A stretch of 64,000 bases of DNA from Macrostomum lignano (GCA_002269645.1 NIVC01000094.1:930001-994000), one strand, 5' to 3'; counted from the first letter of the stretch, positions 1-10,934 are shown. The notes: generated from the letters alone by a model not told the origin. A program made the numbers and translations.

Positions 1-1445
1 TTGGAGTCCATTAGCTAGAGCTGTTTGGACTCGAAAAGACGACCTGGTACTGCAAGAGAACGTGCTCCTGGTGAGGAACAAAGACAAGCGCGACGAGTAT
101 CAAATTGTGCTGCCACGAAAGACTGGATCGTACCTTGAAAACCCTACACGAGGGAGTGGGAGGCGGCCACATGCGAAGACAAAATTAAAAGTGCTTCAGC
201 GCTACTGGCGTCCAGGATTGTCTCGTGCCATTGAATAATATATTCGCGGTTGTGCCACCTGCTGCAAGTCAAAGCCGGGCAAGCGAAACCGAGCACCCCT
301 GCAACCGTTGACATTCGCAGCACCATTCGATTGCGTCATGATGGACATTGTCGGGCCGCTACCGCGGAGTAAGGCTGGAAACATTTATCTCCTGACGGTC
401 CAAGACTCGTTTACGAAATGGCCTGACCCGTACCCGCTTCGCAACCAGAAGGCAAGGACGGTGGCAAGGGCGCTTTTCAATCGATGGATTAGCCAGCATG
501 GATGTCCGAGTACTTTGCACATTGACCAAGGAAGAAACTTCGAATCGCAAGTGATGCGCGAAATGTGCAGAATTCTCGAGATCCGCAAGTCCAGAACAAC
601 AGCTTATCATCCGAGCGGAAATGGACAAGTAGAAAACTTCAATAAAAGCCTAAAATCCAAGCAGCACAATCAAGTGCTGCTTAGAAGATTCAGGACGAAA
701 CGACTGGGAAGAATTTGTCAGCTCGGCGTTAATGGCGTACCGATCAAGCGTGCATAGAGCTACGGGTTATACCCCCCACTACATGGTCTATGGCACGGAG
801 ATGCGCCTACCGATAGACTTGACTGACTAACCGCCACAGCCTGTCGAGTCGCATGTAAATTTCGTCAAGGAGCTAGAAGACAAGTTGCTGACAGCTCATC
901 GCGCTGCTCGACAGCAGTTGAATACTTATCAGCGGCGACAGAAGGACCAGTACGATAAAAAACCCGAGGATCTGATATCCAGAAGGGTGACCATGTCTTC
1001 GTCTACTGCCGCGCCCTAAAACCAGACGAAGCCGCAAAGTTCCACGTAAGCTGGCTCGGCCCGGTGAAGGTGCTCGAAAGAAGATCTGAGGTGCTCTTCA
1101 AGGTGGAAAACCCGTCAAATCGTAAAAAGTCGAAGTTCGTCCACTTCAACAATCTCCGGAAGTTCGCTCGACCGGCCGCCCTGGAAGCACCAGTTGGCAC
1201 CGCGGCACCGCCGGAGGTAGTCGCCGAGACGGACTCGGAGTGAGATGCGGACTCGGCCTTGGACTCGGCCTCAACCGATGCCGCCACAGGTCGCCGAGGA
1301 AGTCGCCGAGGTGCTGGAAGAGCAGATGGAGTTTGTTGACGGCCCGCAGACTATCCATAACCCAGTGGAAGCCGCACCCGAGCCTCAAAGGTCCGGAAGG
1401 TTGCGTCGGCCGCCAGATCGCTATGGCCAGCCAGTGACATTCTAA
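1..1445 (+). mobile_element. Decayed Ty3/Gypsy LTR-retrotransposon pol, integrase region (5' part lies outside the window)
   Basis: Manual translation shows the zinc-binding H..H/CxxC region (LHEGVGGGH, YWRPGL, CATC at ~251-262). The DDE core is in ORF 308-757 (MDIVGP, HIDQGRNFES, GQVENFN). After a frameshift come DWEEFVSSALMAYRSSVHRATGYTPHYMVYG and a GPY/F-like WLGPVKV...VHFNNLRKF, ending RLRRPPDRY. An in-frame TAA at 236-238 and several frameshifts indicate decay. Confidence 0.92.
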
Positions 1446-1850
1446 TGGGTTATCCGTCATCGTGAAGTCTCATCAGCTTCATATGCGATTATCATTAAAA
1501 GCTAAAAATTTACTTCACCAATGCGTCATTCATCATGAATACGAGTACTTCACTCATGCATCATTCATCATGAGTACGAGCAGTTCGCCAATGCGTAATT
1601 CAAGTAGTTCGTCAATGCGTCATTAAAATCACCTTACGGCACGGATTAAGGTGGCTATCGTTGTGTTTCCAAGTCACCTCTCTCTCTCTAAGCAAATATT
1701 TTGGTGGTGGACTGGGTATTGGACCCTTGTGCGGTTTCTGGTCTGGTAGAAGCGACGGGACCGAAAGGTCGGCTGATGACGCTCTAGCAACGAACCTAGG
1801 GAGCTAGGGATGTGCGTAGGAAATCTCAAAGCGGCTGCCTCGTGTTGCAG

Positions 1851-2751
1851 ATGAATTTGTACGCCGTGCTCGGAGTCCAGCACTCGGCCGAGCGTGCCGA
1901 GATCAGGCGAGTCTATCGACAGCTTGCACTCTTCTGGCACCCGGACAAGTACCCGGACAGGGAGCTCGCCAGCCGCCGATTTCAAGAGATCGAGACGGCC
2001 GGCAGAATTTTGTCCTGCTCCTATCGCAGAGCGATGTACGACCAGCTGGTTGAGGGGTCAATACCGTGCGATAATGCCGTCACGTTCGCCATGACTTGTC
2101 CCACCCCCTGGCGTCGAAGTGCCTGCCGACATCGAGGAGGGCATGCAGCAGAGGCGAGAAGTAGAAGAAGAACAGCATAGAGAAGAGAGTACCAGACGGA
2201 AGAGGCGAGAGCAGAGTTACGGTTACGAGGCTGATGGGTACATTTGGATCTCCGACGACGAGCAAAGCGAGCAGGCAGCAGACTGCACCTCGGAAGACAA
2301 TGAGGAGGAAGCCATGCAGATAGATGTCCCAGGATTCAACGAGATAGTGCCCCATTACGTCTCGACGGTGATTTGGGGCGATGGAAATTTGTTGGCAATA
2401 GGCGATGCACTGAGGCTCCGTCAGCAGCTGAGGAAGTACATCCTGGCAGGTCAGCAGGAGAGAATCGAGTCGGTGCTCACTTCAATGACGCGTCTGTACC
2501 TGGATGCGCGGCAAGAGCCCAGAAGCGCGCTCTCGGTGGTACTGCTGCAGGTGTTGCGCTTCATTCGCAGAGACATCTCGCAGGTGAAGCGACAGGGAGC
2601 TAGCCGTCGTTTCTGGTGTAGACGGAACTTCGATTCGTTCGTTCAGCAGCTCCGCTTCGAGCTCATCCCGCTGTTCAGCCTTCGTCGTCACGAGATGTTG
2701 TGGGAGGTCCTCGCCAGCTGCGTCGGTCTGCCAGGACTCCGGGATCGCTAG
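1851..2751 (+). pseudogene. Intronless J-domain (DnaJ/Hsp40-type) ORF of ~300 codons, split by one frameshift near 2100-2108
   Basis: ATG 1851 gives NLYAVLGV..AEIRRVYRQLALFWHPDK..RRFQEIETAGRILSCSYRRAMYD, with HPD at 1938-1946. A shift in the C-run tgtCCCaCCCCC joins it to ORF 2119-2751 (acidic stretch plus a predicted helical region). A ttgcag acceptor lies immediately before the ATG. Confidence 0.8.
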
Positions 2752-3011
2752 GGTGTCCAGTCCCTCTGGTACCGTATTATTCGTTTATCCCTACCGTATC
2801 AATTTTCTTACTGTACTGTACTCGTTTTTTGTGCGCTGCTGGTGTCAGTTACGGTGAGGTTAAGGAGGCGAGGGCGGATGGCCTAGGGGGACATAAGGTG
2901 CTCAGACGGCTACAGCGCCGGCCGGCTCGGCGCGCCACCGGCCAACTTCGTGCGCCAGTCAGCAGCGCCCCGCCAGCTCCGGCCAACTTGCGACTCCATA
3001 AATTCTTAACA
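2752..3011 (+). mobile_element. Possible 3' LTR / right end of the retroelement
   Basis: The segment ends in ...ataaattcttaACA at 3011, an LTR-like CA terminus 96 bp from the ATR donor. I found no clear PPT plus TG start, and the 5' LTR is outside the window. Confidence 0.25.
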
Positions 3012-3107
3012 CTCCCCCTGTATTATAATACTGAAAACATGGCCTCTCATTTTGATTGATTTCCAATCGCAGAGCTTCAAAAATCAGCAGACCCGCAAGG
3101 CACTCAC

Positions 3108-10934
<7,827 letters not shown>

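Follow-up and report, generated by a model that had tools for sequence, protein, structure and literature searches.

A J-domain gene in the env position of Ty3/Gypsy retrotransposons of Macrostomum lignano

The window, that is, the whole stretch of 64,000 nucleotides of Macrostomum lignano DNA that was analysed (GCA_002269645.1 NIVC01000094.1:930001-994000), begins inside a retrotransposon integrase that is followed on the same strand by an open reading frame with a J-domain. A first-pass annotation had proposed that a Ty3/Gypsy element captured a co-chaperone gene in the position of env, possibly for particle assembly or to counter host control. The locus raises the question whether this frame, here termed ORF3, is a gene of the element or a passenger, and what it may contribute.

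The window copy and family A

The features of the window copy are listed in Table 1. The annotated end of the integrase at 1445 was borne out, as broken pieces of the protein (rve, 49 bits; Integrase_p58_C, 30 bits) run up to that stop. Also the J-domain proved to be complete (PF00226, 66.7 bits, model positions 1-63 of 63), with its ATG at 1851 and the HPD where it had been placed. Behind it, a single frameshift near 2085-2100 leads into an acidic and helical frame of 218 codons that ends at 2751, in agreement with the fused region of about 210 residues noticed earlier. The 'LTR-like ...ACA end' proposed at 3011 did not hold: bases 2751-3100 matched neither the full family-A element nor the copy's own 5' LTR at E<=10, no LTR pair was found for this copy, and the trinucleotide ACA occurs four times within 2752-3100. 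In intact copies the stop is followed by a 3' UTR of about 0.6-1.0 kb, containing tandem repeats, before the polypurine tract and LTR are reached; the window copy is thus cut off inside the 3' UTR. It is a broken, 3'-truncated Ty3/Gypsy element, and 3011 is not an LTR end. Upstream of the window start, its 5' LTR and primer site are found at a distance of about 9.8-10.6 kb (about 9.3-10.6 kb with the start of gag included), and several kb of unrelated sequence are inserted ahead of pol. A further locus, C2590, is the same insertion assembled twice, as both have common flanks; it shows the same ORF3 frames and break, with 2 substitutions over 901 nt.

Table 1. Features of the element copy at the start of the window, in positions of the window
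Position	Strand	Feature	Remark
2..1445	+	3' part of pol: integrase zinc-finger region, catalytic core, C-terminal domain	several frameshifts and stops
1446..1850	+	pol-ORF3 spacer	similarity to family A stops near 1626 and returns at 1845 at only 69%
1841..1850	+	predicted splice acceptor (YAG) immediately 5' of the ORF3 ATG	splicing presumed
1851..2090	+	ORF3 5' piece: J-domain (about 1854-2042)	HPD at 1938-1946
2095..2379	+	ORF3 middle piece after the frameshift: proline linker, helix, acidic region	
2239-2259	+	SUMO-interacting-like motif YIWISDD	inside the ORF3 acidic region
2380..2751	+	ORF3 C-terminal domain	predicted five-helix, basic, common to J-bearing families
2752..3011	+	start of the 3' UTR, cut off	without polypurine tract and LTR

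Compared with an intact family-A copy, the window copy has 92% DNA identity from -2011 to 1626, a value that falls to 69% across 1626-1845. Correspondingly, dS relative to family A is 0.10-0.28 in pol and 1.1-1.4 in ORF3. Judged by these divergences, the window copy is a recombinant of a family-A pol and a far more diverged ORF3. The gap in dS and the drop in identity suggest that the ORF3 module was likely swapped in from another lineage, and the junction likely falls within the spacer.

A DNA search gave 29 matches, and 27 stretches were extended. An LTR pair was present in 20 of these 27 family-A/A' stretches, with LTRs that are 98.4-100% identical and have TG...CA ends. The LTR-paired copies carry a polypurine tract and a primer site complementary to the genome's tRNA-Lys(TTT), and target duplications of 4 bp were readable in nine of the 20 (two of the nine at one site). 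Downstream of gag and pol follow ORF3, a 3' UTR containing tandem repeats, and the LTR. Of 24 family-A loci, 20 retain ORF3 as an uninterrupted frame of 315 codons (315 aa); a database protein of M. lignano matches pol with 99% identity. As the assembly is reported to be redundant (PMC12801592, in the part consulted), these copy counts include duplicates; they are also lower bounds. The co-decay of integrase and J-ORF suggested by the first-pass annotation thus applies to the window copy, in which both are broken, but not to most of its relatives, which are intact. Copies of closely related integrase or RT lacking ORF3 (C33, C784, C1075, C2200, C2269) were all truncated at the 3' end or internally deleted, and in none of these five did a complete integrase run into an LTR. 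The grounds for refutation named in the first-pass annotation, a single-copy J-ORF or an LTR directly behind this integrase in other copies, thus did not materialise.

ORF3 in related families and other assemblies

Six further families (B to F and H) came to light in protein searches; all of them combine gag and pol with a homologue of ORF3 and are bounded by paired LTRs. Their pol is 38-60% identical to that of family A over long segments, and their LTR pairs are 87.5-100% identical, mostly above 97%. Altogether, seven families have ORF3 in the same place, behind pol and ahead of the 3' LTR and enclosed by near-identical LTRs, and the decayed lineages B2, C2 and G also belong to this clade. 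Family E pol contains RVT_1, RT_RNaseH, Integrase_H2C2 and rve in this order and its gag a zf-CCHC; the other families are collinear with the Ty3/Gypsy order by tblastn. Some families deviate from this layout: in family H the J fold scores 18 bits, HPD is lost and a C-terminal TatD-like domain falls below the family cut-off; family I has the TatD-like piece only, and family K matches neither the J- nor the C-terminal domain, both with a young LTR pair. As H, I and K are young yet lack HPD or the J-domain, part of the clade appears to manage without Hsp70 recruitment. No ORF3 match was obtained in five full-length Gypsy copies that are more distant and represent two families (C1, C99, C356, C793, C947). 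Two J-proteins of 1449 codons (C575 and C3488) were set aside since neither gag, pol nor LTR accompanies them.

To estimate selection on ORF3, dN/dS was determined between close lineages and ranged from 0.09 to 0.28. Between the window copy and family A it was 0.09 for the J piece, 0.19 for the rest and 0.23 for the C-terminal domain alone, and values of 0.24 (B versus B), 0.28 (C versus C2) and 0.22 (D versus G) were obtained in other comparisons; more distant lineages are saturated or nearly so. In Fisher tests of five pairs, p ranged from 1e-6 to 5e-20. By this measure ORF3 is under purifying selection.

Homologues also occur in other public assemblies. A profile of the C-terminal domain had 11 matches among 1.84 billion proteins, eight of them at E<=1e-10: two M. 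lignano gene models and six proteins from Logan or JGI contigs, five of which were compared and are 43-76% identical to the nearest M. lignano family. The other three (P0133-P0135; 35-42 bits in several short stretches) were dropped as spurious. P0132 has a J-domain and chromodomain layout like that of lineages D and G, and P0130, with J- and C-terminal domain, likely lies on the same JGI contig of 7008 bases as the pol protein P0007. Scanning metagenomes with P0007 yielded four loci of 33-41% identity, none of them on that contig. The single-protein homologue search returned only 4 matches, all to the J-domain only, and the ESM Atlas search no usable match.

A host DNAJ retrocopy that landed behind the integrase by chance, or neutral cargo, would be in keeping with the window copy taken by itself, as this copy is broken and devoid of a 3' LTR. 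The copy survey refutes the retrocopy reading: the same gene order occurs in seven families, ORF3 is under purifying selection, the C-terminal domain was found in none of the host J-proteins examined, and homologues exist in other assemblies. We consider chance cargo to have virtually no probability left. ORF3, being multi-copy, collinear with pol between LTRs and constrained, is almost certainly a real, selected accessory gene of the retrotransposon, which supports its original interpretation as a captured gene.

The order of the pol domains, the zinc knuckle of gag and the LTR hallmarks identify the element as a Ty3/Gypsy LTR retrotransposon. In a quick RT/RNase H tree, 16 clade rows and one long-branch row (P0025) separated from 18 others with an SH-aLRT of 99; the 16 rows are the ORF3 lineages and the JGI proteins P0007 and P0008, the row G_C255 is a D-like fragment and not the G locus, and the tree contains no named Osvaldo or Gmr1 reference. 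We take the tRNA-Lys primer site to link the element to the Gmr1/Osvaldo cluster. Gmr1-type elements in the strict sense have the integrase upstream of RT; this type was ruled out, as the integrase follows RNase H in family E. Chromoviruses are Ty3/Gypsy elements with a chromodomain at the end of the integrase, and an assignment to this group was likewise rejected: no chromodomain was found on family E pol or among the precomputed domains of family-A pol P0006. Based on long LTRs, the primer site and the cluster list in the consulted part of PMC12801592, the clade probably belongs to the Gmr1/Osvaldo cluster, of which that source counts 40 families in M. lignano. The Ty3/Gypsy (Ty3/Mdg4) families described there have young LTRs, as do those studied here. 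By term match, the main text of PMC12801592 contains no DnaJ, J-domain, Hsp40, ORF or chromodomain and its five supplements DnaJ only as transcript Pfam labels, and the main text of the preprint 10.1101/2024.12.18.629116 has no DnaJ.

Protein architecture and expression signals of ORF3

ORF3 consists of a J-domain, a variable middle region that is acidic with a SUMO-like motif or contains a chromodomain, and a basic C-terminal domain of five predicted helices. PF00226 matched with 48-69 bits in families A-F and in four outside proteins, and HPD is intact in most lineages. The J-domain model is helical with pLDDT above 90 and is followed by a helical extension; in the ORF3 model, a disordered acidic region at residues about 124-197 precedes the C-terminal domain. 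By this predicted architecture, ORF3 of the J-bearing families is a class C J-domain protein, family H excepted. The origin of the J-domain was addressed by trees of 73 columns only. In one, the element J-domains grouped with a DNAJC17-like protein (support 86/84); the grouping was gone when the genome's own DNAJC17 copy and more host rows were added, in a tree that includes one non-J row (L299), which breaks the group count.

The C-terminal domain modelled alone forms five helices (pLDDT 88, pTM 0.80). Foldseek returned no match at E<=0.001 in the PDB and viral libraries, and the best VIA Z, 8.7 over 45 residues at an rmsd of 0.9, reflects a generic helical hairpin. The domain probably represents a new protein family. 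It was detectable also in families F (22.6 bits) and H (13.2 bits), with reported shuffles reaching at most 5.8. The last 120 residues carry a charge of +7 to +17 in families A-D and of +1 in E, which has an acidic tail; the middle region is acidic. No membrane-spanning segment was identified, the highest 19-residue hydropathy being 1.08-1.45 in five families, and the Pfam matches of ORF3 include no env family. An errantivirus-type env was ruled out, as ORF3 has neither a signal nor a membrane segment nor an env Pfam match. ORF3 thus occupies the env position noted earlier, between pol and the 3' LTR, but is not env-like.

The middle region occurs in alternative forms. A pattern of hydrophobic core plus acidic residues, which we presume to resemble a SUMO-interacting motif, was present in 11 of 17 proteins and in 1-5% of the shuffled versions of each; the pattern was defined after seeing the sequences, and two of the 11 positives (P0127 and P0136) form one cluster. 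A chromodomain (PF00385) was detected in D (47.7 bits), G (29.3 bits) and P0132 (48.7 bits), none of which has the motif, so that among these 17 proteins the two never occur together; E, H and P0130 have neither. LxCxE was found in P0130 only (1/17). Among solved chains the ORF3 chromodomain is nearest to Swi6/HP1. In the alignment the family-D chromodomain is without the third aromatic residue present in HP1 and Swi6, presumably a cage position.

Structure prediction was also applied to the putative SUMO contact. Complexes of SUMO with its interacting motifs are a solved textbook class. The genome's SUMO-like protein and family-A residues 120-160 gave a complex score of 0.46, compared with 0.02 for the best of three controls; the runs agreed in at least 78% of contacts, and pLDDT of the partner was 51-52. 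In the benchmark of this score, the mark was reached by 51/78 solved pairs and 2/108 mismatched pairs, and of the 78 solved pairs only 5 passed with a score of 0.60 or less, as did each of the 4 mismatches that passed. The predicted complex thus lends weak support to SUMO binding by the family-A acidic region, and, as the class is so well represented among solved structures, the weak pass may reflect structures already familiar to the predictor.

The sequences around ORF3 further contain candidate splice signals. A YAG directly precedes the ORF3 start codon in A, the window copy, B, B2 and D, lies within one base of it in E, F and G, and is located 16 bases upstream in C. The potential donor GTAAG was present in 11/11 clade LTRs and 0/2 outgroup LTRs, both of which are short, and a single shuffled LTR contains it with a chance of 21-54%; the family H donor sits elsewhere. 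In A, the window copy, B, C and E it follows AATAAA by 30-114 bases. In family F the genome lacks an ATG where the J-domain starts; as the LTR donor exon ends in A and the acceptor is followed by TG, the start codon of this family would arise by splicing. The start codon of gypsy env may be created by splicing as well. These signals suggest a subgenomic ORF3 mRNA. At least half of the query words occurred in 20/24 listed sequencing runs, none recorded as RNA and 14 of the 20 only guessed to be RNA, and contigs of four guessed-RNA runs fully covered a family-C stretch. Among these contigs there was neither a canonical splice joint nor a loose end at the acceptor; the donor predicted as the main one lies outside the stretch and assembled contigs drop rare RNA forms, so that the family-C result speaks neither for nor against splicing. 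No heat-shock elements, even of two units, were found in 10 LTR sequences.

Possible roles and known parallels

J-domains with HPD stimulate Hsp70, and polyomavirus T antigen, like other viral J-proteins, has an N-terminal J-domain, a target-binding motif and an acidic tract and aims Hsp70 at a host complex. ORF3 resembles T antigen in its J-domain followed by target motif and acidic tract; its addresses, however, are a SUMO-like motif or a chromodomain, with LxCxE in P0130 only, and its carrier is a retrotransposon. Of the roles initially suggested, a chromatin role is favoured over particle assembly because two mutually exclusive modules both point to silenced chromatin. We therefore lean, tentatively and with somewhat less than even confidence, towards ORF3 as a chromatin-directed Hsp70 adaptor that would counter host silencing of the element. 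A spliced subgenomic RNA would connect the GTAAG donor in the LTR with the AG that precedes the ORF3 start codon. In the protein, the hydrophobic-plus-acidic motif would bind SUMO and the chromodomain H3K9me, as two interchangeable addresses, while the basic C-terminal domain would bind nucleic acid and the J-domain would stimulate host Hsp70. Hsp70 brought to silenced chromatin may then loosen repressive complexes on the element, the outcome being counter-silencing and not integration targeting. In flies, SUMO connects piRNA targeting with chromatin silencing, according to the consulted part of 10.1101/533091. A more doubtful extension, which we regard as a possibility, is that the spliced, chromatin-reading co-chaperone of this clade docks on SUMO/H3K9me silencing complexes through interchangeable modules, binds its own element via the new helical domain and strips repressors with host Hsp70, the modules being swapped by recombination in an arms race with piRNAs and heterochromatin.

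The same chromodomain and SUMO-motif evidence would also fit a helper of integration, by which ORF3 tethers the pre-integration complex to SUMO/H3K9me chromatin and Hsp70 clears nucleosomes or dismantles the integrase complex. ORF3 would then do, as a separate protein, the job of the chromovirus integrase chromodomain; the basic C-terminal domain and the lack of a chromodomain on the one pol scanned by Pfam (family E) agree with this. The window copy, with its family-A type pol and far more diverged ORF3, argues that tight co-evolution with the integrase is not required, and we regard an integration helper as unlikely. In contrast to chromoviruses, the chromodomain in M. lignano is part of a distinct J-protein, and only lineages D and G have it.

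Viruses use Hsp40/Hsp70 in assembly and polymerase activation, and ORF3 might accordingly recruit Hsp70 to fold, assemble or uncoat Gag particles or to activate RT. An intact J-domain with HPD in most lineages and the strongest constraint in this part (dN/dS 0.09) would be expected of such a replication chaperone. It would leave the HP1-type chromodomain and the SUMO-like motifs unexplained, related Gypsy families with young LTRs manage without the gene, and ORF3 has no membrane or signal segment; this role appears rather unlikely.

A further explanation is that ORF3 limits the element or its competitors, either by reinforcing silencing via Hsp70 or as a decoy that soaks up Hsp70 or SUMO factors. 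A plant J-protein tethered to chromatin (SILENZIO) acts with HSP70 in silencing (PMC8616336, in the part consulted), and the J fold of family H without HPD would suit a decoy. However, families bearing the J-domain number among the young ones with multiple copies; a gene that promotes spread would account for this better than a brake, and we consider self-restraint improbable. That the known chromatin J-protein of plants promotes silencing (PMC8616336) is a point against counter-silencing in itself, as is the occurrence of the young families H, I and K without HPD or without a J-domain.

Non-env accessory genes in the env position are already known. According to the part of PMC5408684 consulted, LTR elements of bdelloid rotifers carry non-env ORF3 genes (GDSL esterase, DEDDy exonuclease) that share with the ORF3 studied here the env position, gain, loss and exchange by family, and the combination of two domains in one ORF3. 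That text has no DnaJ or chaperone and finds evolution within the genome not significantly different from neutral, whereas dN/dS is 0.09-0.28 between lineages here. Errantivirus env and mdg1-group sORF2 (PMC13486581 and PMC13524379, parts consulted) are likewise third ORFs between pol and the 3' LTR that are retained or lost by lineage; these are membrane fusogens, whereas ORF3 is without a hydrophobic segment. VANC21, the anti-silencer of VANDAL21 transposons (PMC8616336, same part), may share the principle of element-encoded relief of chromatin silencing, but it belongs to a plant DNA transposon, acts on DNA methylation, and no domain common to it and ORF3 was found. In databases the J-ORF occurs inside automatic gene models: UniRef100_A0A1I8G8I7, a 'J domain-containing protein', joins pol pieces, ORF3 and unrelated sequence into a 3375-aa chimera, and NCBI BOX15_Mlig034239g2 of M. 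lignano matches a pol-J fusion made by deletion; the gene itself is described by neither. A term match in the available part of PMC6338049 gave no DnaJ, chaperone or TatD. In openly readable literature, searched by title and abstract start, no LTR retrotransposon with a J-domain gene was described, nor one with a J-domain joined to a chromodomain, in line with the initial impression that no Gypsy element with a DnaJ accessory ORF had been reported. As far as this search reaches, a J-domain gene in the env position is new.

To our knowledge, well-studied transposon anti-silencing proteins come mostly from plants. If ORF3 does aim Hsp70 at heterochromatin, it would provide an animal example of anti-silencing with a clear biochemical logic. 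Transgenesis is in use in M. lignano, as mentioned in the consulted part of PMC12801592, and the natural variants of the clade, with SUMO motif, with chromodomain, without HPD but with TatD, with TatD only or with none of these, represent built-in comparisons.

Surroundings of the window element

The broken Ty3/Gypsy copy in the window is followed by three probable host-gene exons on the minus strand (see the table), one of which gave weak ARM/HEAT matches under the cut-off. The element may lie inside an intron of this gene, on the opposite strand. In addition, its gag and pol are separated by an insert of several kb, located upstream of the window (about 700-8000 of the extracted stretch L030), and the four longest frames of this insert yielded no Pfam matches.

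ORF3 variants and other J-domain frames

In families H and I, ORF3, the third gene between pol and the 3' LTR, carries a TatD-like domain, apparently a nuclease fold whose catalytic function has decayed. About 16 near-identical reverse transcriptase copies occurred in the score band of family H. At one locus (L172 with L217, contig C506 of the M. lignano assembly), a family-E pol is joined in frame to ORF3 through a deletion, and, judged by domain list and the length of the contig, this fusion likely corresponds to the database protein P0014.

A J-domain also opens an intron-free, multi-copy frame of 1449 codons (L199-L202; C575, C3488 twice, C1744, C1901), and no gag, pol or LTR was found near this frame in these stretches. 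Supplement 2 of the M. lignano LTR-retrotransposon paper (PMC12801592) lists a transcript, MligTCv3c-15711.0, as about 2.3-fold up after heat, its sole label there being 'DnaJ domain, score 65.2'. Family-A ORF3 has a DnaJ score of 65.3, obtained with a newer model than that of the transcript, and label and score do not suffice to equate the two.

Several apparently intron-free copies of SUMO-like genes were also observed in the genome (L243-L249; C1551, C1565, C2589, C2596), some in pairs on opposite strands of one contig. Elsewhere, a fragment resembling family D is adjoined by AT-rich ORFs (L238:6400-10000; C255), which presumably resemble a DNA polymerase region of Polinton/Maverick type.

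Primer sites and tandem arrays

Primer sites in the LTR leaders of the clade vary among families, a tRNA match being made for one type only, the tRNA-Lys(TTT) type.

Features of the window element and related families
Feature	Location	Description
Probable host-gene exons	window 3104-3607, 4536-4961, 5993-6433	minus strand
Family H ORF3	L227:6994-8667; also C137, C538, C647	HPD-less J fold, shared helical domain, degenerate TatD-like domain
Family I ORF3	L225/L226	TatD-like half only
Primer site	families A, C	tRNA-Lys(TTT) type
Primer site	window copy, B C1549	a variant
Primer site	family D; E/F/H/I/K	other sequences
Family A array	between gag and pol	30-mer
Family A arrays	3' UTR	20-, 32-, 41-, 61-mers
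Family A arrays	some LTRs	

Copies of family A (e.g., L038, L008) contain tandem arrays of variable length, and families B, C and D have arrays of their own. These arrays may represent binding sites of ORF3.
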